From UHGV virus genome UHGV-1789726: a stretch of DNA of 12,502 nucleotides. One strand, written 5' to 3'. Source of the DNA: a virus. This document shows positions 175 to 12,502 of this stretch, in pieces. Positions within the stretch are counted from its first letter, which is position 1, and every line of letters starts with the position of its first letter. Position numbers and translations under genes: made by a program. Below the pieces are notes generated by a model that was not told the DNA's origin, did not search any database, and worked only from the letters and a program-made list of their open reading frames with translations.

Positions 175-203
175 GTAACCTGCTATCTGAAGGAGGCTGC
201 CAC

Positions 204-398
204 ATGCTGGCTACTACCCCTACCCAAAAAACGCAATTTATCTGGATTATCGCCGCAGTTCGCCGCGATTGCCCGACAATTACCGCCAAAATTCATCATA
301 TTGCTGCCGAGTCTGAACGCGATGCTCGCCGTTCTCTGGTGCGCGATCACATCTGCTTTTTTGCTGGTCGTATCCGCATGGAGGTGGCACATGATTAA
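204..398 (+). CDS. Small early protein, Icd/Kil-like (host cell-division inhibitor family of P4-type prophages), 64 aa
   Basis: AGGAGG at 191-196, 7 nt before ATG 204. Translation (FIWIIAAVRRD...RRSLVRDHICFFAGRIRMEVAHD) resembles Icd-like proteins from memory, unverified. Stop overlaps next start (ATGATTAA). Confidence 0.55.
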   Translation: MLATTPTQKTQFIWIIAAVRRDCPTITAKIHHIAAESERDARRSLVRDHICFFAGRIRMEVAHD

Positions 399-609
399 AA
401 CCTACGATGTGCATATGGATCCCCTCGAACGCACAAGCCAGATCATCACACTGACAGAAGTGATTAACGACATTCTGGTGAGCAACTCTCCCTCACGAGA
501 CGAAAAACTGAAGGCGTTACTCGCGATATTGGACCTCGCCGTTCGTGACGTTCATTTCCTGCTGGAAGGTGGACAAATGCCATGCAAAACGGGGGCAACC
601 AATGAATAA
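391..609 (+). CDS. Hypothetical small protein, 72 aa (internal start of the 67..609 track ORF)
   Basis: GGAGG at 381-385 before ATG 391; start overlaps the previous stop; stop overlaps next start. Confidence 0.5.
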   Translation: MIKTYDVHMDPLERTSQIITLTEVINDILVSNSPSRDEKLKALLAILDLAVRDVHFLLEGGQMPCKTGATNE

Positions 610-796
610 CTCAATTAATACCCCTCGCCTTACGTCCGCACTTCAATTAATCGAGCAAGCAGCGGCTGTCCTGGTTGCTGTCAGTCTTTCGGCTGAAGAA
701 ATGGACGCTGCTGATGTCGTGGATGCGATTAAAGCGTGCTCATCTTTGGTTAACGATGCCCGTGCCGAGCTGGTAATTCTTGGGGGTGAAAAATGA
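602..796 (+). CDS. Hypothetical small protein, 64 aa (internal start of the 545..796 track ORF)
   Basis: ATG 602 preceded by a G-rich SD-like run (GGGGG); overlaps previous stop 607-609; stop overlaps next ATG at 793. Confidence 0.45.
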   Translation: MNNSINTPRLTSALQLIEQAAAVLVAVSLSAEEMDAADVVDAIKACSSLVNDARAELVILGGEK

Positions 797-1056
797 ATAT
801 CAACTTAATTTATCGTCATCCGTGTGAGCTGGAAATTGAATCATTGCTGGGGCGCGAAGAGCCATATCCAGACACATTCACTCCCGCAGATTGCGCGACT
901 GAACGGCTTACCAGAGCGCGCACAGGTCTGGTTCATGTGATGAATGAGATTGTTCCCTCGGTGGGAGGGGAACAGGCGACAGTAATCAATAGCTGGCTAC
1001 AAAAAGTTACCTCCCTGATAGATATCGGTTTAATCGATGTGGAGAGTGCGAAATGA
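793..1056 (+). CDS. Hypothetical protein, 87 aa
   Basis: GGGGGTGA SD-like sequence before ATG 793; ATGA overlaps at both ends. Confidence 0.55.
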   Translation: MNINLIYRHPCELEIESLLGREEPYPDTFTPADCATERLTRARTGLVHVMNEIVPSVGGEQATVINSWLQKVTSLIDIGLIDVESAK

Positions 1057-1274
1057 CCAACATCCAGCTCATTGAAGCGCAATGTCGCATCGAACAGGTT
1101 CAGACTGTTTTAGGGTTCTGGCTTGAAGGGGCCAGCCCCAGCAACAGAGACAAGTTAATGATTGGCGCGGTTATGTCACTGCTCAATGGCGTACCAGAAG
1201 CTATTCAGGAAGCGGACGAATTGTTGGGCAAATATGAGTTACAGAATCATTCAGGCGAGGCGAAACATGAATAA
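1053..1274 (+). CDS. Hypothetical protein, 73 aa
   Basis: GGAGAG before ATG 1053; overlaps neighbours at both ends. Confidence 0.5.
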   Translation: MTNIQLIEAQCRIEQVQTVLGFWLEGASPSNRDKLMIGAVMSLLNGVPEAIQEADELLGKYELQNHSGEAKHE

Positions 1275-1869
1275 TTTCTTAACTTTCCATGCAGAAGCAA
1301 CGCCTGACGGCGTAAACATCATGTACCGCAGCAACGATGGCATGACAGAACGCGTTGAGACCGTCTCATATATTGATGCCGTAAATCGTCTGGATGCCGG
1401 GGATTATGACGATAAACCAGATGAAGGCATGTTTATACATCTCGCTATTGCCAGTGGCGGCAACCAGGGATATTTCGATTACACATCACAGCATCACGTG
1501 ATTATGTGGCGCTGGCTGATAGCAACAGCATTCATCAATGAAATGAGAAAGGAAAACGGCACTGTCAGCATCATTGATGATACTGGCAATCCTTCCGAAG
1601 TGGCTGTTTATTCCAACGGCATCGTCGCCATGCCGCTGTATCCAGTAGCAGAGCGCCTCGCTATGGCAAACAACATTGAGGGCGCGATGATAGAACGTTT
1701 TGGCATCGAGTCTGGCACAGAACGCGCCATCATTTTCTACAGAGCCATGATGGATGTGGAACAAGGAGCACTGACTCCATTTGGTCGTGAAACGCTTGCT
1801 GAACTTCACAACAGCTTTATAGCTGAACTGAATGAAAACGGCATGCCAGCGGAACCAGTGACGCACTGA
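1267..1869 (+). CDS. Hypothetical protein, 200 aa (internal start of the 1162..1869 track ORF)
   Basis: ATG 1267 overlaps the stop of the previous gene (ATGAATAA); GAGG upstream. The N-terminal extension in the track has no RBS and overlaps the previous gene. Confidence 0.6.
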   Translation: MNNFLTFHAEATPDGVNIMYRSNDGMTERVETVSYIDAVNRLDAGDYDDKPDEGMFIHLAIASGGNQGYFDYTSQHHVIMWRWLIATAFINEMRKENGTVSIIDDTGNPSEVAVYSNGIVAMPLYPVAERLAMANNIEGAMIERFGIESGTERAIIFYRAMMDVEQGALTPFGRETLAELHNSFIAELNENGMPAEPVTH

Positions 1870-1879
1870 GGATGGAGCC

Positions 1880-2221
1880 ATGATTACTAAAAATTTCCGA
1901 CTGAATGCGCTGGCAAATAAGTATGCGTCAGCACTGTATAACCACATTACCTCCACCAGCGGCGGGGACTATTTCATGATTGATGCGGACGGAGAGGCCG
2001 TCCGTGTGGAAATCGTCAATGGAGTAAAAGGCGTTCGCAGCCTGATCGATAGTTACGCACTGGCAGCCATGAAAGTGTTCTACCCGCAGTGGGAAACCGT
2101 GGGGATCGAGCTTCTTGATCGTTGCGTCACTAAGGACAGATTGACTGACGTCGGGCGTGAGATATGGCAAAGCATGGTTAATGACATGGGCGCAACTGTA
2201 GCGGGAGGTTCTCATGCGTGA
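1880..2221 (+). CDS. Hypothetical protein, 113 aa
   Basis: GAGGATGGAG SD-like sequence 5-8 nt before ATG 1880; 10-nt gap from previous stop. Confidence 0.65.
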   Translation: MITKNFRLNALANKYASALYNHITSTSGGDYFMIDADGEAVRVEIVNGVKGVRSLIDSYALAAMKVFYPQWETVGIELLDRCVTKDRLTDVGREIWQSMVNDMGATVAGGSHA

Positions 2222-2585
2222 AAATGTAGAAATGGCGCTTAGCTCCGCAATCGGAGAGCAGGTGGCAAAGATTGCTGGTGCTGTGTGGATTCATAACCTT
2301 CATTCTACTGGTGAAGAGAAAATGGCAATTCAGACGCCAGAGGGACGCACCATTACTACATCTCTGAAGCCGTCAGATGTTTGTGATCTGATTTGCGCAT
2401 TCATGTACCCAGCAATGAGGACTGTCCACGGCGATAAGTGGAAACTTGCGACAACCGCTGAATTTGATATGTGGCTAAACAATGATGGCATGCTGACTGA
2501 TTACGGAATAACCAAGTGGCAGATGCTAGTTAGCCATATCGCAAACGCTATAGACCACGTGGGGTACGGTGATGCGAAACATTGA
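2214..2585 (+). CDS. Hypothetical protein, 123 aa
   Basis: GGGAGG before ATG 2214; start overlaps previous stop; stop overlaps primase start. Confidence 0.65.
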   Translation: MRENVEMALSSAIGEQVAKIAGAVWIHNLHSTGEEKMAIQTPEGRTITTSLKPSDVCDLICAFMYPAMRTVHGDKWKLATTAEFDMWLNNDGMLTDYGITKWQMLVSHIANAIDHVGYGDAKH

Positions 2586-5328
2586 TCTTATCCGTCAGGT
2601 TATCAGTGCGTCTGAAAACAACTGGCCTCATGTGCTGGGCTGCCTGAACATAAATGTCCCTGACTCTCCGCGCCGTCATGCTCCCTGCCCTGCATGTGGG
2701 GGCAAAGATCGATTCCGGTTCGATGACAACGGGCGCGGTAGCTTCATCTGTAATCAGTGCGGCGCTGGTGATGGGCTGGATTTAATTAAACGCGTAAATA
2801 ACTGCGACACAACAGAGGCGGCGCTTCTTGCCGCTGATGTTCTGGGTATTGATTACCGGACAACGGAAACACCAGAAGCCACCAGCCAGAAACGGGAACA
2901 ACTGGAAACCGAGCGCCAGCGACGCGAACAGGAGCGCCTGAAAAGGGCAGAGAAGGACGAACAACAAAGACGGGATACGTTTTCCCGTCAGTTTGATGAC
3001 ATGCGCAGAAAGGCTGTAAACGGCAAATCTGATTATCTGGTTGCGAAAGGGGTAGGTGATTTTACATTCCCCGTGTTGCCCGATGGATCTCTGTTGCTGG
3101 CGCTGGTGGATAAATCCGGCGCAGTAACAGCAGCACAGACTATTACCTCACATGGTGAAAAAAGACTCCTGACAGGTTCAGCAAAGCGAGGGGCATATCA
3201 CGCCATAAACGCACCAGAAACAACACAGAGCATCTTAATCGCAGAAGGGCTGGCAACGGCATTATCTGCCCATTTAATGCGTCCAGAGGCGCTGACAGTG
3301 GCGGCGATTGATGCCGGGAACCTGTTATATGTCGCCCAGGTACTGCGGGATAAATTTCCTTCAGCACAAATCATCATTGCTGCGGATAACGACCACAGCG
3401 AAGGAAGACAAAACACGGGGAGAATAGCAGCAGAAAAAGCAGCTTTATCTGTTTCTGGATGGGTGGCATTACCCCCGACAGATCACAAAGCAGACTGGAA
3501 TGATTACCACCAAAAACACGGCATTAAATGCGCCACAGAAGCGTTCAATAAGTCAATGTACCAACCACAGGGTAATGGCGTGAAACAGGAGCCACAGACC
3601 ATTGAGGGAAGCGATTTTAAGGTTATGGATACCGATCCACTGAAACCAAGAATAGAAAGCCGCGAGGATGGTATTTATTGGGTATCTCCGAGAGCTGACA
3701 GCCAGAGTGGAGAAATCATCAATAACGAAAGCTGGTTATGTTCTCCGTTAAGCGTTATCGGTACTGGCAGAGACGATAAAGACCAGTATCTCATTCTTCG
3801 CTGGCTGTCGTTTGGTTCTGAAACGCCGACAACCGCTGCCATTCCACTGGCTGATATTGGTGAACGTGAAGGATGGCGCACACTTAAAGCTGGTGGGGTA
3901 AATGTCACGACCAAAAGCAGCCTCAGAGCAATACTGGCAGACTGGCTACAACGCAGTGGCTCTCGTGAATTGTGGCGTGTTGCTCATGCCACTGGCTGGC
4001 AATGCGGAGCGTACATCATGCCTGATGGGGAAATCATCGGAACACCTGAAAATCCTGTGCTGTTCAGCGGGAGAAGCTCAGCCGCAGCCGGATATACCGT
4101 CTCAGGGAGCGCGAAAAGCTGGCGTGATAACGTGGCGCGTCTGGCCTTTGGTAACTATTCAATGATGACCGGGATCGGCGCAGCACTGGCAGCGCCATTG
4201 ATTGGGCTGGTGGGCGCTGACGGGTTCGGCATTCATTTCTATGAGCAGTCGAGCGCAGGTAAGACCACCACGGCAAACGTGGCGAGCAGCTTATACGGCA
4301 ACCCTGATTTACTGCGGCTGACGTGGTACGGAACCGCGCTGGGGCTGGCAAATGAGGCCGCCGCCCACAATGACGGACTAATGCCGCTTGATGAAGTTGG
4401 TCAGGGCGCTGATCCTGTCAGCGTTTCACAGTCTGCCTATGCGTTATTTAACGGTGTAGGGAAACTGCAAGGCGCTAAAGATGGTGGAAACCGGGATCTA
4501 AAACGCTGGCGTACAGTGGCAATCAGCACCGGAGAAATGGATTTAGAAACATTTATCGCTACTTCCGGGCGAAAAACCAAAGCCGGGCAACTGGTGCGAC
4601 TGCTGAATATTCCGTTGAGTAAAGCAGTACGCTTTCACGATTACCAGAACGGAAAACAGCACGCAGACGCACTGAAAGACGCTTACCAGCATCACCACGG
4701 CGCGTCCGGGCGTGAGTGGATTAAATGGCTGGCAGACCACCAGCAACAGGCTATTAAAACCGTTCGTGACTGCGAAAGCAGATGGAGAAGCCTGATCCCA
4801 TCCGATTATGGTGAGCAGGTTCACCGTGTAGCCGCGCGATTTGCCATTCTGGAGGCCGCATTGTTGTTAGGCGAGGTTGTAACAGGCTGGGATGCTCAGA
4901 CATGCCGTGATGCGATACAGCACAGCTATAACGCATGGTTGCGCGAGTTCGGCACAGGTAACAAAGAGCATCAGCAGATTATTGAACAAACGGAGGCATT
5001 TCTTAATGCCTATGGGCTTAGCCGTTTTGCACCATTTCCATACAGCCCGGCAGATTTGCCCATCAAAGATTTAGCCGGATACCGTCAGCGTGGAGAACAT
5101 GACGAAAGCCCAATGATTTTCTACACATTCCCGGCCACATTTGAAAAGGAGATCGCATGTGGTTTCAACGCAAAACAGTTTGCTGAAGTGTTGAAAAAAG
5201 CCGGGATGCTAACCCCACCAAACAGCGGTCGTGGATACCAAAGAAAATCACCACGTATTCAGGGACGACAAATAAACGTTTATGTACTCAATTACCAGCC
5301 AGGAGATTACAACTCATCTGAAGAATGA
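2572..5328 (+). CDS. Primase-helicase (P4 alpha / PICI Pri-Rep type): N-terminal zinc ribbon, TOPRIM, C-terminal P-loop domain; about 918 aa
   Basis: CPACGG...CNQCG zinc ribbon (nt ~2686-2766); TOPRIM signature with IAEG Glu (nt ~3244) and AADND (nt ~3385); SSAGKTT P-loop (nt ~4258). ATG 2572 preferred over the track's GTG 2569. Confidence 0.9.
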   Translation: MRNIDLIRQVISASENNWPHVLGCLNINVPDSPRRHAPCPACGGKDRFRFDDNGRGSFICNQCGAGDGLDLIKRVNNCDTTEAALLAADVLGIDYRTTETPEATSQKREQLETERQRREQERLKRAEKDEQQRRDTFSRQFDDMRRKAVNGKSDYLVAKGVGDFTFPVLPDGSLLLALVDKSGAVTAAQTITSHGEKRLLTGSAKRGAYHAINAPETTQSILIAEGLATALSAHLMRPEALTVAAIDAGNLLYVAQVLRDKFPSAQIIIAADNDHSEGRQNTGRIAAEKAALSVSGWVALPPTDHKADWNDYHQKHGIKCATEAFNKSMYQPQGNGVKQEPQTIEGSDFKVMDTDPLKPRIESREDGIYWVSPRADSQSGEIINNESWLCSPLSVIGTGRDDKDQYLILRWLSFGSETPTTAAIPLADIGEREGWRTLKAGGVNVTTKSSLRAILADWLQRSGSRELWRVAHATGWQCGAYIMPDGEIIGTPENPVLFSGRSSAAAGYTVSGSAKSWRDNVARLAFGNYSMMTGIGAALAAPLIGLVGADGFGIHFYEQSSAGKTTTANVASSLYGNPDLLRLTWYGTALGLANEAAAHNDGLMPLDEVGQGADPVSVSQSAYALFNGVGKLQGAKDGGNRDLKRWRTVAISTGEMDLETFIATSGRKTKAGQLVRLLNIPLSKAVRFHDYQNGKQHADALKDAYQHHHGASGREWIKWLADHQQQAIKTVRDCESRWRSLIPSDYGEQVHRVAARFAILEAALLLGEVVTGWDAQTCRDAIQHSYNAWLREFGTGNKEHQQIIEQTEAFLNAYGLSRFAPFPYSPADLPIKDLAGYRQRGEHDESPMIFYTFPATFEKEIACGFNAKQFAEVLKKAGMLTPPNSGRGYQRKSPRIQGRQINVYVLNYQPGDYNSSEE

Positions 5329-5353
5329 GCTTCTTCATGTGCGTAGAAAAGGC

Positions 5354-5464
5354 GTTGGTTCAGTTGGTTCAGTTGGTTCAATTTGTAAAGAGTATTGTTT
5401 TATAAGGATTTTATTCTTTTTATTGAACCAACACTGAACCAACAACACGGTATTTTGAACCAAC
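5354..5464. repeat. Iteron cluster / candidate origin: 3 tandem GTTGGTTCA, a 43-bp AT-rich spacer, then 3 inverted copies TGAACCAAC
   Basis: Direct copies at 5354-5362, 5363-5371, 5372-5380; AT-rich 5381-5423; inverted copies at 5424-5432, 5435-5443, 5456-5464 (11 bp and 21 bp centre-to-centre). Sits immediately 3' of the primase gene. Confidence 0.65.
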
Positions 5465-5784
5465 ACAATGTGACTGAATTGATGCGCACAACACCTGGCT
5501 GGCATCAGAGAGTGTTTTACGAGACTTTCGTAAAATCCTGTGTACAAGGGCGTGACGTTTTTGAAAGTGAGCACTACGAAATTTTCGTAGTTCAGAAAAC
5601 AGCCTCTGAGAAGTTGTTATGCCTGTTCAGCAAACCATCCGCATAGCTGATCGCGAATCAAATTACCAATGGAGCCAGAAGCAAGGGCAGAACTGAAAAG
5701 CGCCTGCCGTGAAGAGTAATGCGACACCATAAATATAGTTTTTAGAGTCCATAAAAAACCTGTCAAAACCTGACACACAGAACG

Positions 5785-5817
5785 ATGCCACCAGCTACTG
5801 AGCGGTGGCATTTTTTT
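5785..5817 (+). terminator. Rho-independent terminator
   Basis: 8-bp stem ATGCCACC (5785-5792) / GGTGGCAT (5804-5811) with an 11-nt loop, followed by a T7 run (5811-5817). Confidence 0.6.
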
Positions 5818-5912
5818 GTGCTATTTGTTTCATATTTTGCAATTACGATGATGAATATTGCGATTTGTGAAACTATAATAACTGTTGTTTTATACAGTTC
5901 TAAGGGGGCGTT

Positions 5913-6074
5913 ATGGCTATTTCAGTAAAGCCGGTATTGATAAGTGAGAAGCAAATGGAAGCGATAAAGAAAATTCAGGAAGAGCAGCGTAAAAAATCAG
6001 GAATTGGAGTAGCGCCAACTCTGCATGAAATTGCACGAGGGTTAATAGATAAGGCGCTGGCAGGCTGTATGTGA
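5913..6074 (+). CDS. Small ORF, 53 aa, absent from the ORF track; possible ribbon-helix-helix (Arc/MetJ-like) regulator
   Basis: AAGGGGG at 5902-5908, 4 nt before ATG 5913; stop TGA 6072-6074. Translation MAISVKPVLISEKQMEAIKKIQEEQRKKSGIGVAPTLHEIARGLIDKALAGCM has a strand-helix-helix layout. Fold assignment is inference. Confidence 0.45.
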   Translation: MAISVKPVLISEKQMEAIKKIQEEQRKKSGIGVAPTLHEIARGLIDKALAGCM

Positions 6075-6090
6075 AAATGGATGGCATCGC

Positions 6091-6552
6091 ATGGAACTAA
6101 AATTTATTGATAACCCTGTGCGATTACAGGCCTTTCTTAACGAGCCAGGCAATACCGAAAATATTGTTGAGCCGGGGCACACGTACTACATCAAGCCTGA
6201 TGCGGTATATCTCGGCATCTACGAAGGATTAGTGCTGGCTGGCGTTCATGAAGTGCGTAACTTCTGGCATAGCGTTGTTGAATGCCATGCGGTGTACGAC
6301 CCCGGATTCCGTGGTGAATATGCACTGCAAGGACATCGATTATTCTGCAAATGGCTTCTCGAAAACTCACCATTCCTTAACAGCATCACTATGGTTCCTG
6401 ACACCACGAAATACGGACGGGCAATTATCCGTTTGCTTGGCGCTACCCGTGTTGGTCACCTTGATGATGCTTATATCAGATGTGGTAAACCCGTCGGCGT
6501 AACGCTTTATCAGTTAACTCGGCAACAATATAAGGAATTCAGCGAATGTTAA
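6091..6552 (+). CDS. Hypothetical protein, 153 aa; first gene of the four-gene cassette
   Basis: Long ORF, non-repetitive sequence; stop overlaps next start (6546). Confidence 0.7.
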   Translation: MELKFIDNPVRLQAFLNEPGNTENIVEPGHTYYIKPDAVYLGIYEGLVLAGVHEVRNFWHSVVECHAVYDPGFRGEYALQGHRLFCKWLLENSPFLNSITMVPDTTKYGRAIIRLLGATRVGHLDDAYIRCGKPVGVTLYQLTRQQYKEFSEC

Positions 6553-7223
6553 TTACCCATATAGCTCATAAACATCTCAATCGTGCCGTATACGAAAAAG
6601 GCGGTGATGGTGGTGCCTCTAAAGCTCAGGCGAAGGCCCAGCAGCAGGCAATTGATTTGCAGCGCGAGCAGTGGAATACGGTGATGAATAATCTCAAGCC
6701 GTATGCAGAAGTCGGATTGCCTGCTTTACAACAACTACAAGGACTGATGACTCTGGAAGGGCAGAATAAAGCCGCGAATGATTTCTTTGGTTCTGGTTTA
6801 TATAAAACACAGGCAGATCAGGCCCGTTATCAGAACCTTGTCTCAGCAGAAGCTACCGGGGGGCTTGGCTCAACAGCTACCAGTAACCAGTTATCTTCCA
6901 TTGCGCCCATGCTTTATAACAATTGGCTTAGTGGGCAAATGCAAAATTATGGAAACCTGCTAAATGTCGGGATGAATGCGGCATCAGGGCAGGCAACGGC
7001 AGGGCAAAACTACGCCAATAATACCGGACAACTCTTGCAGGGGCTTGGCGCTATTCGTGCAGGTCAGGCGCAGCAGCCATCCAGTCTTGCGCGTGGTATT
7101 GGTGGGGCAGCATCAGGCGCTTTAGCGGGTGCGCAACTTGGTTCCGTTGTTCCTGGAATAGGAACTGCGGCCGGCGCTATTGGTGGTGGGCTTATTGGTC
7201 TTGTTGGGGGGCTTGGATTCTAA
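6546..7223 (+). CDS. Q/N/A/G-rich protein, 225 aa, with C-terminal glycine-zipper hydrophobic segment; internal-virion/ejection-protein-like
   Basis: AAGGAA 9 nt before ATG 6546. C-terminus GIGGAASGALAGAQLGSVVPGIGTAAGAIGGGLIGLVGGLGF (nt ~7083-7220). Stop overlaps next start (TAATG). Confidence 0.75.
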   Translation: MLITHIAHKHLNRAVYEKGGDGGASKAQAKAQQQAIDLQREQWNTVMNNLKPYAEVGLPALQQLQGLMTLEGQNKAANDFFGSGLYKTQADQARYQNLVSAEATGGLGSTATSNQLSSIAPMLYNNWLSGQMQNYGNLLNVGMNAASGQATAGQNYANNTGQLLQGLGAIRAGQAQQPSSLARGIGGAASGALAGAQLGSVVPGIGTAAGAIGGGLIGLVGGLGF

Positions 7224-8542
7224 TGGCGACATGGCAACTTGGCGGGCTGCCTAGCATGGCACCGCAAAATGATAATGCTCCTCGTTCTTCCGTTCCTCAG
7301 CCTGTGCAGTATCAGCAGCAGCCAAACGTAGGTTTAATGGCGCTACAGGGGCTAAGAGGCGTTGCTGAGATTAATCAGCAGGCGCAAATTTCCCAGCAGC
7401 TAAAAGAATATCAGGCACGGTTGGGTAGTGCGGTAGCTAATAATGATCGTGTTGGCGTGCAGAAGTTAATGGCCCAGTATCCCCAGTTTATGGCTGATTC
7501 TCAAAAACAGATGGGATTCATTGATGCTGAGCAAAATCGGCAGACCGCTGACGCTGCCATGAATCTGCGTCTTGCGTCACAAACTGGAGATCCACTGACC
7601 ATGCAGAAGGCCATTCAGCAGGCAAATCCAGTATTACAGCGATTTGGTCTTCCTGCTGAAGAGGTTTATCAGTCTTGGCAGAATGACCCACAGGAATTCA
7701 ACAGAATCACTGACCTCATCCACCTCCATGCTGATCCAAATAGTTACTTTAGTGTTCAAGAGAAGCAGCAAGGGCAGAGTATTGCACAGCAGAACGCAGA
7801 TACATCTGCATATAATGCTCAGGTTAATGCGGAGCAGGGTAATCGGCGGCTCGATATGGAGCAGTTCAAAGTCCTATCCGATAACCAACTACGCACGAGA
7901 GAAATGGTTCTGAAAGCACGACTTGGACGTGCTCAAAATGACATCGAGAGAGACAAGCTCAATGCTGAACTGAGCAAGGTACAGCAGGCGAAAGTGGAGA
8001 AGATGAACGATAAAATTAATACTGTTGCAGGTAATATCGACTCCTTGAACTCTGCGCTTGAAGTGGGTCATGAACTGGCGGGAATTGTAGGGAAACATCC
8101 TTCGGCCGTTACCCGTTCGCAGAACTATAACCCCCTGACGCTGGGGTTTGGATTCCTCCCTGATGTAGCAGAAGACACACGAAGCCTACGCGCCAAAGCT
8201 GATGAATACAACCTAAAGGTTATTCTGCCTAGCCTAAAAGGTACTTTTGGCTCTAACCCAACCGAAGGGGAAAGGGCTGCCCTTATGCAATCTCAAAATG
8301 GCATTAAGTCAGCAACCAGCAATGAGGCATTTTTGCGAGAGTTGAATAAAGCGCAGGACGTAATTATTCGAATGCAGAAACGACAGATTGCCGGGCTCGG
8401 TATTCCTGTAACCAAATCTAAGGACGAAGAAACTGATACCAAAATGCTGTTGCAGGATCCTTCACTGGTTAAGGATTATGTGACCGCACATGGCTATCTG
8501 CCGGAAAGTTACTATCAGGCAAAACTTAAGGGATGGCAATGA
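7223..8542 (+). CDS. Gln-rich, predicted helical/coiled-coil protein, 439 aa; internal-virion/ejection-protein-like
   Basis: Long ORF coupled at both ends; Q/A/N-rich composition. Confidence 0.8.
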   Translation: MATWQLGGLPSMAPQNDNAPRSSVPQPVQYQQQPNVGLMALQGLRGVAEINQQAQISQQLKEYQARLGSAVANNDRVGVQKLMAQYPQFMADSQKQMGFIDAEQNRQTADAAMNLRLASQTGDPLTMQKAIQQANPVLQRFGLPAEEVYQSWQNDPQEFNRITDLIHLHADPNSYFSVQEKQQGQSIAQQNADTSAYNAQVNAEQGNRRLDMEQFKVLSDNQLRTREMVLKARLGRAQNDIERDKLNAELSKVQQAKVEKMNDKINTVAGNIDSLNSALEVGHELAGIVGKHPSAVTRSQNYNPLTLGFGFLPDVAEDTRSLRAKADEYNLKVILPSLKGTFGSNPTEGERAALMQSQNGIKSATSNEAFLRELNKAQDVIIRMQKRQIAGLGIPVTKSKDEETDTKMLLQDPSLVKDYVTAHGYLPESYYQAKLKGWQ

Positions 8543-11259
8543 TGGCACAACTGACAGAAAAACAGAAAGCCTATTCCCGTCATCTCGATGAAAAATATGG
8601 TTTCCCATCAGGGACGATGGAAACATTAGTTGGCAATGAATCTAGTGGTAACGGAAGTGCCGAGTCACCGAAAGGAGCTAGAGGATTTGCTCAACTGATG
8701 CCCTCAGTAATGAGTGATGCTGGTTATCGTGGAACAGATCCGCGCTCACTGCCATTTGAAAAGCAAATGGATATCGCAGCAAACCATCTCAATAAAGGAA
8801 TGAAGCGATTTGGTGATATAGGTATGGCATTGGCTGGGTATAATTCTGGCTATGCTCGTATTAATGCCGTAAGAAACGGTAAATCTACACTGCCAGATGA
8901 AACGGCTAATTACGTAAGTAAATTTGCAGATGCCGGAATAATCCCTGATGACAGTGAAATCTTGCAGTTTGCACAAACCAGTCAACATCGCAATCTTCAG
9001 CAGCCTGACTACTCAGAGCTTGATAAAGAAATCTCTCAGGTGGGAGATATTTCTGCATGGGAAGCAAAACGTCAGCAATTTAAGAACATAGAAGCAGGAC
9101 TACCAACAGCCAGTTCATGGGAGCAGAAAAGAGCTCAGTTTCTCGCCGATGAAAATGCCGGGGAACCGCAGCAGCAAGTAGCCAAGTCTAACCTTAATCC
9201 TGAGATGGAATATCTTTCGCCAGGACTGAAAGCTGCGCCAGAGCAGATGGCCAGAGGGATTGCTAATATACCGTTTGATGTAATGGACGCAGGCGTGGGG
9301 GTAGTCAATGCGGCGCAATCAGCCGGAGCATGGGCAGCTCAGAAGCTTGGTGTGGGTGATGGCACATACACGCCCATATCACCTGTCTTTCGCCCAGTAG
9401 ACCAACCTACAGATCCATACGCGCAGGCTGGTGAGCAGCTAGCACCTTACCTTATTACAGGATTAGGTGCAGGAAAGGCAGCTACCGCAGCTTCTTCAGT
9501 TGCCAACGCTCCACGTGCTGAACGTGCGGCCACAAAGGTGGCTAGTATGTTGGCAGAAAACCTGCCAGGTACATTGGTGAACGCCCAAAAGAACGGGCAG
9601 ATCAGCCCAGAAGACCTAGCAAAAGAGACAGGTATTGGCCTAGCAGGATCGCTAGGAGCACGCGCTTTAATAAAGAGCGGACAGACAGCCAGTGACGTAA
9701 TGCGAGATGTATTGCGGAGTAATACAAATCAATCAGGCCATGTGTTAGGGGCAGCAAATACTCTGGAAACCGCCAATGATGTATCGAAAGCAGCGCGTTC
9801 TGCCGTAGGCCGAGAGCATATCGCATCGCAGGCATCAAACGTCAGAGATGATGTCGCTAAGGCGGCGAAAATCACTGGTATTAATATCAACACCCTGACG
9901 CCTGGAATGCGCTCAGGTAGTCGTGGAATTGCCCAAGCAGAAGGTGTTCTGGCATCAACTCCTGGGAATGTTCAGGATGCTCACCTTACGGCCTTCAATG
10001 AAATATCCTCAAAGTTGAATAAGCAGTTGTCTGATTTCGGTGCTGAGTCTGGAAGCGCATCAGAAAAAAGCGCAGCAATTAAAGAGCGCATCATCGCGAG
10101 CCTCAGTGATATGAAAACAGCAGAGAATATGGCATGGGCAGAACTGCGAAGCACGATGCCACGCGAAAGGATGAAAATGAGTAATGGGATGGCTGTCGTC
10201 CAAGCAGAAAAAGCAGCCAATGTTCCACTCAGCCCGGAGATGAAACAGTTTCAGGCTGCCAACAACCAAGGTGGCGGCATAACCTTCGACGGGATGAAGG
10301 CATGGCGTGCTAAGTTTGCTGATGCTGAACAAGCAAACACCCGGGCAGGTAAGGCCAATGCCGCCCGGATTGCCGGAGAAATGCGCAGAGCTATCACTGA
10401 TGACATGCGCATCATGGCTGAAAAAGGAAACTTCCTCACAGAATGGCAGAAAGCTAACGATCTCTCTAAAAGTTACATTATCGCCAAACAAAATGCCGAA
10501 TCTGTTTTTGGTCGAGATCTCGCATCAGACGCTATGGTAAGAAAAGGTGCCGATACGCTTAAGGCATCCGCAAACACTGGAACTGGAGCTTTTCACCGTC
10601 TTATCTCCGCGCTGCCGGAAGCAGAACGCCAACCAGCAATAGCATCTATTCTTCAGCATGCTGTGGCGCAGGGAGAGAAGGGAGGAATCGGTGAAGAGTC
10701 TGGTATCCAGTATTTTGCCAAGCTCATGACCCAGCAGAATGTAAACGCCATCAGTCGTCATGCGCCAGATCTCGGTAGAATGATGAAAGAGTTCGGTGTA
10801 CTCGCTAAAGCCAGCACCAGACCGCAGCGATACGTAGAGCGCACGGGAAGAACAACTGAGGCTCTCAAAACGCTCGATTCAGGCCTTCCAAAGATCGTCG
10901 GCGTGATTATGAACGGAGTTCAACAGTCAGGTGCGATCGCTGGAGGCTTTGGCGGTGGTGTAATTGGTTCGATTAGTGGTTTGGTTGCTGGTGGCGCGCT
11001 GAGAAATACTGTGGCTAAGATTGGGGCGACAAGAAGTGGTAGGTATGCGATAGAGAAAGCCGTTCAGGAAGCTACAAAAGCAGTGCGCGCAGGGGCATCA
11101 CCAGCAGCGATCGCCGCAGCAGAGAAACGATTTTCGGCCAATAAAATTGCCATGAAAGCAATTCGTGATGCCGTTGGGGCTGAAGAATTCGTGAAACTGA
11201 CAAGGGCCGGGATTGTAGCTACCCTCAGTGGCATGAAAGATGTTAGCGAATGGGAATAG
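8533..11259 (+). CDS. Large protein, 908 aa, with N-terminal family-1 lytic transglycosylase (SLT) motif set and a glycine-zipper segment near the C-terminus
   Basis: Motifs E-S (GNESSGN, nt ~8638), G-x-x-Q (GARGFAQLMP, nt ~8692), A-Y-N-x-G (ALAGYNSGYA, nt ~8839); GAIAGGFGGGVIGSISGLVAGGA at nt ~10900-11000. Start may be 8533, 8539 or 8542; AAGGGA at 8526-8531 favours 8539. Confidence 0.85.
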   Translation: MAMMAQLTEKQKAYSRHLDEKYGFPSGTMETLVGNESSGNGSAESPKGARGFAQLMPSVMSDAGYRGTDPRSLPFEKQMDIAANHLNKGMKRFGDIGMALAGYNSGYARINAVRNGKSTLPDETANYVSKFADAGIIPDDSEILQFAQTSQHRNLQQPDYSELDKEISQVGDISAWEAKRQQFKNIEAGLPTASSWEQKRAQFLADENAGEPQQQVAKSNLNPEMEYLSPGLKAAPEQMARGIANIPFDVMDAGVGVVNAAQSAGAWAAQKLGVGDGTYTPISPVFRPVDQPTDPYAQAGEQLAPYLITGLGAGKAATAASSVANAPRAERAATKVASMLAENLPGTLVNAQKNGQISPEDLAKETGIGLAGSLGARALIKSGQTASDVMRDVLRSNTNQSGHVLGAANTLETANDVSKAARSAVGREHIASQASNVRDDVAKAAKITGININTLTPGMRSGSRGIAQAEGVLASTPGNVQDAHLTAFNEISSKLNKQLSDFGAESGSASEKSAAIKERIIASLSDMKTAENMAWAELRSTMPRERMKMSNGMAVVQAEKAANVPLSPEMKQFQAANNQGGGITFDGMKAWRAKFADAEQANTRAGKANAARIAGEMRRAITDDMRIMAEKGNFLTEWQKANDLSKSYIIAKQNAESVFGRDLASDAMVRKGADTLKASANTGTGAFHRLISALPEAERQPAIASILQHAVAQGEKGGIGEESGIQYFAKLMTQQNVNAISRHAPDLGRMMKEFGVLAKASTRPQRYVERTGRTTEALKTLDSGLPKIVGVIMNGVQQSGAIAGGFGGGVIGSISGLVAGGALRNTVAKIGATRSGRYAIEKAVQEATKAVRAGASPAAIAAAEKRFSANKIAMKAIRDAVGAEEFVKLTRAGIVATLSGMKDVSEWE

Positions 11260-11409
11260 ACGCTCTAACTAACAAAACCATAATAGCCAAGGACGGCATA
11301 CTGATATTGAGCCAACTATCAAAATTCCATATCACATTACGGGCCTGTGGCTTACATTCGCTTACAGTGATGATAATTTATAACCACGCAATTCTTAGGT
11401 GAGATTATC

Positions 11410-12108
11410 ATGATTAAAAATCTTCTTTTAATATTATCCCTGTCATTATTGGCTGGATGCGTACAAAAACCGTTAGTAACGGTCAATGCTTTATCTTCCG
11501 GGCAATCTGTCGGTAAGAAGTTCTTGATCATCCCCGCAAGCCAAGAACTTTGGAACACCAAACAGATTGAATACACTCAAATAGCTACGGTAGTAGCCGC
11601 CAGTTTATCAAGCCAAGGATATACACAAGTTAAAGATGAAAAATTGGCTGACCAGGTAATTCTCTTGAACTTTTTGAGAAGCGGGGCCATTTCAAATACT
11701 CGTAATGTAACCATCCCAATATACGGGCAAACTGGTGTGAGCTCAGCAACAACGTACGGAAACTCGAACACCACGTTCAATAGTTATGGTGGTGGCTACG
11801 GTACAGCTAATACCACTGGAACGGCAACAACAGTTTATACGCCTACTTATGGAATTACTGGCGCGTATAACACAACTGTGACGGACACGTTCTACGGCGC
11901 AGGGGTGATACTCCAGTCGTTTGATGCCAAGGCTTATCTCAATAATAGGCAGATTAATATGTTATGGAAAGTTGGTAGCTCAGTCGTCTCGCAACAGTCT
12001 GATGGAATTGCTGATTACAAGGGGTTGGCGAGAATAGCCGCTAGCTATGCCGGGAAAAATACAGAAGGTGATATAACTTTTAATGTTGACCCTAAAGCAC
12101 CAAATTAA
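11410..12108 (+). CDS. Putative lipoprotein, 232 aa, with Thr/Gly/Tyr/Asn-rich central region
   Basis: AGGTGA 7 nt before ATG 11410; signal peptide plus lipobox MIKNLLLILSLSLLAGC. Region looks more AT-rich than the rest by eye. Confidence 0.8.
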   Translation: MIKNLLLILSLSLLAGCVQKPLVTVNALSSGQSVGKKFLIIPASQELWNTKQIEYTQIATVVAASLSSQGYTQVKDEKLADQVILLNFLRSGAISNTRNVTIPIYGQTGVSSATTYGNSNTTFNSYGGGYGTANTTGTATTVYTPTYGITGAYNTTVTDTFYGAGVILQSFDAKAYLNNRQINMLWKVGSSVVSQQSDGIADYKGLARIAASYAGKNTEGDITFNVDPKAPN

Positions 12109-12115
12109 CTAATAA

Positions 12116-12137
12116 GCCCGGTACGCCGGGCATTTAT
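12116..12137 (+). terminator. Weak terminator-like hairpin after the lipoprotein gene
   Basis: GCCCGG (12116-12121) / CCGGGC (12126-12131) with a TACG loop, followed by ATTTAT; T-tract is poor. Confidence 0.35.
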
Positions 12138-12236
12138 GCCCCTATTATTCATGAATCGCTTTTTCTAGAAGGTATGCGACAAACGTTAAGTGACATTGCC
12201 TACACATTCGGGGCGGGATTTCAAATCCGCTCCCAG

Positions 12237-12408
12237 TTGATGGGGGGCGTTACAGTACGCGCATATCCGCTTTATGTGAAACAGGAAGATTTTTCTGATA
12301 TCACTGCCACAGCAAAACACCAATTTCGTGACCAGTACGCGCGCGAGGGGTATCAGTTGCAAAAAATTTTGCAACTACGTCCGACCAGTACGCACACGAT
12401 GGCGGGGG
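12237..12408. repeat. Repeat-rich noncoding region: three copies of CAGTACGC, two longer direct repeats flanking a 20-bp palindrome
   Basis: CAGTACGC at 12253-12260, 12333-12340, 12386-12393; GACCAGTACGC at 12330-12340 and 12383-12393; palindrome GTTGCAAAA-AA-TTTTGCAAC at 12356-12375; GATGG(G/C)GGGG at 12237-12247 and 12398-12408. Confidence 0.45.
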
Positions 12409-12502
12409 ATACCATAAAACTGTTCTCTACATGAGACAGAGTGGTGGTGAACCGCCCCGGGAATCCTGGAGACTAAACTTCCTGAGAAAGAGGTAAACAG
12501 GA

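Follow-up and report, generated by a model that had tools for sequence, protein, structure and literature searches.

The ORF-poor stretch after the primase gene of an EcCIMP1-type island is probably the tail of its early transcription unit

Between a replication origin and a strong terminator in the virus genome UHGV-1789726 lies a stretch of DNA that is poor in open reading frames (ORFs). What is this stretch? The question concerns positions 5465–5830 of the window, which is the whole 12,502-nucleotide stretch of DNA that was analysed, read 5' to 3' on one strand. The initial annotation offered three answers: a long 3' untranslated region (UTR) of the primase transcript, a small RNA, or the seam between a satellite-like module and a second unit that carries a gene cassette. 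The analysis described here points to the first of these. Positions 5465–5830 are probably the non-coding end of an early transcription unit, running from alpA to the primase, in a phage-inducible chromosomal island (PICI) of the EcCIMP1 type.

The description of the stretch as ORF-poor holds up, and no credible gene lies inside it. The primase ORF occupies 2569–5328, and no supported gene follows before 5913. The gap between them measures 584 bp, which makes it the longest intergenic gap of the window. Its G+C content is about 0.39–0.42, compared with about 0.5 in the flanks. The short ORFs named earlier are indeed present, one at 5395/5482–5646 and one of 25 amino acids at 5619–5696. Direct reading of the sequence finds neither of them equipped with a Shine-Dalgarno sequence.

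The element to which the stretch belongs can be recognized by alignment. Positions 190–12450 match EcCIMP1 of E. coli MP1 as a single block, with 98.8% identity over 12,273 aligned bases. Judged by sequence, the window is an allele of an EcCIMP1-type PICI, and not an identical copy. EcCIMP1, a phage-inducible chromosomal island of E. coli MP1, has the P22-like phage vB_EcoP_Kapi1 as its helper, which both induces and transduces it (Pick, Stadel and Raivio, ISME J 2025; PMC11773190). Its ends were determined by excision/circularisation PCR and sequencing, giving an extent of 19,963 bp that includes both the cassette and a PerC gene, and its early operon is controlled by AlpA (PMC11773190). Helper-dependent excision and transfer have been published for the MP1 copy only, and the same paper does not mention origin iterons, the spacer, the terminator, relics or a C4 RNA (PMC11773190). 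RNA-seq of E. coli MP1 exists (PMC12922286). The element is already known and experimentally characterised, and the features of the interval are of well-known kinds: real, but ordinary.

Annotated copies reveal how the whole island is laid out. The order starts with an integrase at tRNA-Thr, continues with an AlpA-type regulator, an anti-repressor, an 'ash'/Icd region and the primase, and then reaches the spacer. Beyond it lie the 53-aa gene, the gene for a DUF2824 protein, those for P22-type ejection proteins, and finally the PerC regulator. A tRNA-adjacent integrase, an AlpA-type regulator and a primase are found together in the RefSeq annotation of the ABU 83972 and MP1 copies; these genes lie outside the window or at its edge and were read from the island copies. 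The ABU 83972 copy (L001) is integrated at tRNA-Thr (thrW). A BLAST search of 5,426 complete E. coli genomes recovers the region from hundreds of strains.

The island also encodes an antisense RNA. It is a C4 antisense RNA (Rfam RF01695, 79.9 bits) of the type known from P1/P7/P4 immunity, present at full length on the plus strand at 63–150, inside a region annotated as the CDS of an 'ash family protein'. Perfect complements of 8–9 nt to its loop and stem sequences follow directly downstream, at 166–194. The spacer was considered as a target of this RNA and rejected, as complementary sites occur only at 166–194 and none is found in the spacer.

On its left, the stretch begins at a replication origin. 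PICI origins consist of iteron sets around an AT-rich core and are located 3' of the primase (Fillol-Salom et al., ISME J 2018; PMC6092414). The same arrangement is found here at 5345–5472, directly past the primase gene. A repeat finder locates three direct iterons, GTTGGTTCA, at 5354–5386 and three inverted iterons, TGAACCAAC, at 5423–5466, with an AT-rich core between the two sets. In full-length islands, a second iteron cluster can be found outside the window, about 8.5 kb past the origin and just upstream of the PerC gene (22476–22590 in L001; 18446–18566, reverse strand, in the MP1 island, L048). It contains three plus three copies of the GTTGGTTCA and TGAACCAAC repeats in inverted orientation and is 77% identical to 5347–5472. 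The extent of this second copy puts the end of the origin unit at about 5472, and the spacer is not part of it. The cassette, in turn, is bracketed by two origin-like sites. An extended origin reaching into the spacer was rejected: DnaA and IHF motifs are not enriched, and the duplicated unit stops at 5472.

Beyond the origin, related islands differ from one another. The comparison covered 44 loci, selected by the promoter pattern that follows the terminator; their sources were genomes of E. coli, IMG/VR contigs, metagenomes and a single Leclercia genome. Each locus was scored block by block with BLAST for sub-blocks of the window, and six arrangements were found. Class I is the window type; it comprises 17 loci, together with three truncated ones that have the window-type gp14/gp7 cassette and whose left side is not recoverable. 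In class II (12 loci), a DUF5906 primase with its own GGTACAGGTGG iterons is followed by the window slot content from 5511. Class III (5 loci, L004 type) has the window primase and origin, and 5523–5662 is replaced by 427 bp with a 153-aa ORF. Class IV (2 loci, L006 type) consists of a P4-family primase and a 93-aa ORF, and then follows the window from 5683 onward. In the four class V loci (L003 type), the slot is empty: a P4-family primase is followed by TATCCCTAC iterons that directly abut window 5756 onward. Finally, class VI is the single Leclercia locus, with a related primase and origin, an SSB-like slot gene, a different terminator hairpin, and the same promoter and 53-aa gene.

Each primase type has its own iteron sequence. 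For instance, the DUF5906 primase is accompanied by GGTACAGGTGG iterons and the P4-family primase by TATCCCTAC iterons (L002 11800–11920, L003 11760–11960). The layout of direct set, core and inverted set just before the slot is shared by all of them. The ETEC type has two extra genes, of 76 and 245 aa, between primase and origin. ETEC H10407 retains the second iteron cluster despite its different primase and primary iterons.

Partial matches in other E. coli genomes place the breakpoints at about 5511, 5523/5663, 5683 and 5756. To the right of the last of these lies a block that stays constant. This hinge block, 5756–5912, is present in 499 of the 5,426 complete E. coli genomes, always at full length and with at least 90% identity. 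The slot block, 5500–5760, is found at a coverage of at least 80% in 455 genomes, and the whole window-type arrangement in 328. The hinge occurs together with three primase types (TOPRIM/DUF927, DUF5906 and P4-family) and with at least four cassette types. Comparative genomics had been proposed as a check on whether the primase/ori module and the cassette occur independently of each other. They do: the two modules reassort. Three sets of genes can follow the window-type left side: gp14, gp7, gp20 and a transglycosylase-domain protein of 908 aa, which is the set of the window and of MP1; gp14, gp7, a different gp20 and a 701-aa protein; or this second gp20 and the 701-aa protein, with gp14 and gp7 missing. 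In classes IV and V, the cassette has a peptidase-M41-family gene instead.

The DNA between the origin and the hinge can be divided into several pieces. The first, 5473–5510, is the tail of the primase/ori module; block-wise BLAST of the related loci and alignment show it to be present only where the window-type primase and origin are present. The second, 5511–5560 on the plus strand, is the left part of an accessory slot. It contains a palindrome, TTTTACGA-GACTT-TCGTAAAA (5514–5534), that is degenerate in the ETEC-type islands of class II and absent in class III.

The third piece, 5561–5662 on the plus strand, is recognizable as a pseudogene relic of an anti-repressor (phrog_1726), both from its similarity to intact members and from its disabling lesions. 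In blastn, tblastn and pairwise DNA alignment, its 102 nt match an internal part of an intact gene for a 242-aa protein, with 75% identity in DNA. Intact relatives are found in the immI region of a P22-like prophage and in Klebsiella phages, where they are annotated as anti-repressor, and the intact 242-aa protein matches the PHROG family phrog_1726 'anti-repressor' with E=2e-99. Only about 38 of the 242 codons, approximately codons 52–89, are retained in the relic. These are interrupted by a 9-bp deletion and by a 1-bp deletion that shifts the frame by −1.

The fourth piece, 5663–5732 on the plus strand, is the 3' tail of a lost accessory ORF, traced by tblastn and haplotype translations. Its frame ends with the TAA at 5730–5732, and the window allele has a premature TGA at 5694–5696. 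In tblastn, 5613–5729 resembles the C-terminus of the class III 153-aa ORF with a stop codon inside, and 5684–5716, in another frame, matches the C-terminus of the class IV 93-aa ORF. Unrelated genes thus enter the same conserved flank in different frames, which is the pattern expected at a recombination joint. Class V islands are without any relics, and the other classes hold different DNA at this place. Thus, in the window lineage the slot (5511–5755) quite likely contains nothing but debris, and the relics are most simply read as non-functional.

The slot of other islands is not always filled with debris. In Leclercia sp. EMC7 (L008, about 4290–4742), an intact SSB-like gene whose product ends in ...DDQIPF lies between origin and terminator, so the slot can carry a replication accessory gene.

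Palindromes of the form TACGA-N5-TCGTA in the slot, at 5518 and 5575, were considered as operators because they are nominally enriched, with 2 found compared with 0.12 expected. Both were rejected. The copy at 5575 consists of codons for HYEIFVV that are also present in the intact anti-repressor gene, and the copy at 5518 survives in class II only in degenerate form and is missing from class III. A third exact copy can be found at 23064–23078 of L001, downstream of the PerC gene in ABU 83972; it may be an anti-repressor relic as well.

On its right, the stretch ends in the strong terminator that the initial annotation placed at 5785–5817, and this terminator is real. A hairpin at 5784–5812, GATGCCACC-A-GCU-ACUG-AGC-GGUGGCAUU, has a predicted energy of −17.6 kcal/mol and runs into seven T residues at 5811–5817, a combination well beyond chance. 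With a stable G+C-rich hairpin and a run of T directly after it, 5784–5817 on the plus strand has the sequence features by which intrinsic (Rho-independent) terminators are defined, and it is classed as one. Among hairpin-plus-T-tract sites on both strands of the window it ranks first, the runner-up reaching −14.7. It is as a feature that the terminator is conserved. In 45 related sequences, all ten terminator variants keep a stable hairpin followed by seven or eight T residues. The Leclercia relative has a different hairpin at the same position, GGCCACC-TCT-GGTGGTC followed by T7, with a shorter loop and one compensatory exchange of U-A to G-C. Within E. coli, no compensatory changes were found among the terminator and hairpin variants.

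The terminator is part of the constant hinge, which as a whole spans 5756–6062 and takes in a repeat, the terminator, a promoter and codons 1–50 of the 53-aa gene. Its left edge is marked, in all classes found in E. coli, by a tandem 10-bp repeat, AAAACCTGTC/AAAACCTGAC, at 5755–5775, which can also be read as the palindrome TGTCA-N5-TGACA. In classes IV and V, the same C-to-T change is found at the equivalent position of both units. The repeat could be a protein-binding site or part of the 3' domain of an RNA. Across classes I–IV, the positions around it (5710–5835) are nearly invariant, although the upstream genes differ. This near-invariance and the concerted change in the repeat could reflect a cis element or an RNA that lies outside the main explanation.

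Downstream of the terminator, a PWM scan finds the best sigma-70-like promoter at 5851–5879 on the plus strand. It has a weak −35 (ATGAAT/TGAATA) and a perfect −10, TATAAT, at 5874–5879, and its sequence is conserved in Leclercia. An inverted repeat, GCAAT-N13-ATTGC (5839–5861), overlaps the −35 region. Its spacing and arms are kept in Leclercia amid surrounding divergence, and it is a candidate operator.

The first gene of the cassette, at 5913–6074 on the plus strand, encodes a protein of 53 aa. Its first 50 residues are near-invariant in all classes, and its last residues vary with the cassette that follows. No match was found for it in Pfam, PHROG, NCBIfam or PDB sequences, and a Foldseek search gave no significant match. 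The AlphaFold2 monomer (pLDDT 78) has an extended N-terminus and two helices, a predicted strand-helix-helix arrangement that is reminiscent of ribbon-helix-helix proteins. When genome contigs were scanned with the 53-aa protein, only two loci were found.

The remainder of the cassette (6091–11259, plus strand) encodes DUF2824/gp14-like, gp7, gp20 (Inj_translocase) and 908-aa proteins, which are the satellite's own P22-type virion-internal proteins. Pfam identifies DUF2824, P22_gp7, Inj_translocase and SLT domains in it. The SLT lytic-transglycosylase domain is located at the N-terminus of the 908-aa protein, which takes the place of gp16. At the DNA level, the gp14-like gene and Kapi1_055 of the helper are 81% identical.

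Taken together, these observations can be arranged into a simple mechanism. Transcription of the early operon, which is AlpA-controlled in EcCIMP1, would pass the primase gene, the origin and the relics, and would stop at the terminator at 5784–5817. The terminator would insulate the cassette downstream, which would be expressed from its own promoter (TATAAT at 5874–5879), possibly under autoregulation by the 53-aa putative regulator. Recombination would swap replication modules, slot contents and cassettes around the hinge (5756–6062), which itself stays constant.

The default reading of 5465–5830, compatible with all findings, is a long 3' UTR of the primase transcript, and this is also the most likely one. 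Two results fit it. The sequence from the primase stop to 5784 contains no terminator, and on the plus strand of 5465–5785 the PWM scan finds no promoter above the background of about one site per 145 nt, the consensus scan finding none at all. We infer that the primase transcript reads through to the terminator, that termination there is efficient, and that the relics it would cover are without function.

Sites that may be relevant to transcription are also present on the minus strand. A promoter-like site at 5766–5739, which is directed leftward across the relics and the origin, consists of a perfect TTGACA (5766–5761), a 16-nt spacer and TAAAAA. Inside the 3' end of the primase gene, at 5217–5202, a hairpin with a T-run resembles a terminator. 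The two sites could produce an antisense transcript across the origin; the −10 of the promoter-like site is not conserved in class V.

Could part of the stretch do more than end an operon? There is perhaps a slim chance that the core, about 5710–5817, is functional in its own right and not a passive operon end. For instance, it might give rise to a satellite small RNA of about 70 nt, derived from the 3' UTR or weakly promoted. The specific form of this idea, slightly less probable, is a small regulatory RNA of about 5746–5817. It would either arise by processing of the primase transcript at its 3' end or start from a weak promoter, GTGAAG-19-TATAGT (−10 at 5734–5739), and would consist of a hairpin UGUCA-AAACC-UGACA, the terminator hairpin and a U-tail. 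The strong terminator with its U7 tail speaks for it, as does the near-invariance of 5710–5835 in classes I–IV. The plus strand folds with a z-score of −2.8 relative to shuffles, but this surplus comes mostly from the terminator and two local palindromes. Weak promoter-like sites exist, with scores of 6.3–6.6, but such sites are at background level, as 173 of them score at least 6 in 25 kb.

Other tests of the small RNA that the initial annotation had suggested for 5465–5830 were negative, leaving it without positive support. Rfam yields no family at the gathering threshold or at E<=10, where the only matches in 5465–5830 are chance miRNA-like ones on the iterons. In class V, the sequence upstream of 5756 is wholly different, and Leclercia shares only the terminator as a feature. 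Hairpin variation within E. coli is not compensatory. The spacer has no complementarity to the C4 RNA and, to the helper Kapi1, none beyond chance length. Nor is it conserved in excess: mean pairwise difference is 0.016–0.063 in every segment, no higher conservation than in the flanks and no lower difference than in the 53-aa gene. This last comparison is a weak test, since diversity is very low throughout, coding or not.

Less probable again, and distinctly unlikely, is a role for the spacer or for the core at 5710–5785 as a cis-acting DNA site. Such a site might be a pac signal for the P22-like helper, or its tandem repeats might be bound by the 53-aa protein, AlpA or a helper regulator, and so control the cassette or modulate termination. 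The packaging mechanism of EcCIMP1 is unknown (PMC11773190), which leaves room for a pac signal. However, the longest exact matches between 5329–5912 and the Kapi1 genome are 12 nt, about what is expected by chance, and none lies in the terminase region; a mimic of the pac site is therefore not supported. As to protein binding, the repeat or palindrome at 5755–5775 occurs once in the window and in all E. coli classes, with its concerted C-to-T change in classes IV and V. Yet the motif is absent from the Kapi1 regulatory regions, from the rest of the island and from Leclercia, and the terminator separates it from the −10, which is about 110 bp further downstream. DnaA and IHF motifs are not enriched either.

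Very improbable is the idea that two tandem mobile elements meet here, a satellite ending after the origin and a P22-like prophage remnant with ejection-protein genes. P4-type satellites end shortly after their origin. The cassette genes are of P22 type (Pfam P22_gp7, Inj_translocase and DUF2824), the similarity of the gp14-like gene to that of the helper fits the same picture, and the relic derives from a gene of the P22-like immI region. This reading is refuted by the mapped ends of EcCIMP1, which enclose both the primase/ori module and the cassette within 19,963 bp (PMC11773190). The seam between modules that the initial annotation proposed therefore stands as a mosaic joint inside one island, but not as the border of a separate second element. 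Furthermore, the same architecture is found at different host-bounded sites (thrW in L001, yicC-dinD in L004), the second iteron cluster lies past the cassette and still within the island, and the spacer contains no att-like repeat or tRNA fragment.

Finally, a small protein made from the 54-aa ORF at 5482–5646, the 25-aa ORF at 5619–5696 or a 64-aa minus-strand ORF at 5617–5811 is hardly credible: the ORFs exist, but besides lacking a Shine-Dalgarno sequence they have no PHROG match, their substitutions in haplotype translations are non-synonymous, a tblastn search of phage genomes with the 54-aa ORF gives matches to its relic part only, and across sister haplotypes none is conserved, each losing its start or stop or shifting frame somewhere (class II has no start codon for the 54-aa ORF and no stop codon for the 25-aa ORF, the frame of the former is shifted in L022, the start of the latter is gone in L021, and several haplotypes have a frameshift in the 64-aa ORF).

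The reading as the tail of the early transcription unit is of use mainly for annotation. The gap after the primase gene of EcCIMP1-type islands can be labelled as origin, pseudogene debris and terminator, and is not a place to mine for genes. The most useful by-product is a modular map of the island family, consisting of the hinge, exchangeable replication modules, the slot and virion-protein cassettes. Such a map indicates where cargo may be inserted or deleted without touching known functions, and it points to a small conserved piece as the first candidate for regulation of the cassette. It has no bearing on any long-standing open question.

How does the locus compare with known systems? Its terminator shares with intrinsic terminators between operons a G+C-rich hairpin with a T-tract next to it, and nothing unusual was detected. 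Likewise, gene relics, nested recombination breakpoints and unrelated ORFs entering a shared flank are also found at the mosaic joints of lambdoid and P22-like phages and satellites. The 53-aa protein is similar to Arc and Mnt in size and, in its predicted structure, in layout.

Satellite P4 offers a partial likeness. In P4, ori and crr are two iteron clusters several kb apart, and the island also has two such clusters several kb apart, as well as a C4/CI-type RNA upstream. Only these two features are P4-like. In contrast to P4, the full island copies have no sid, delta or psu annotated, the helper is P22-like and not P2-like, and the island primase is of the TOPRIM/DUF927 type.

The closest match in general layout is found among the PICIs, in which int, alpA, primase/rep and ori are followed by an interference or packaging module (PMC6092414). 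As here, transcription of the module that follows ori keeps the same direction. It differs in content, since the module past the origin consists here of P22-type ejection proteins and not of proteins that redirect capsid size or terminase, and the immunity region of the island has a C4 RNA of P4/P1 type. Finally, EcCIMP1 itself has the same gene order as the window, and its MP1 copy contains the spacer, the terminator and the cassette.
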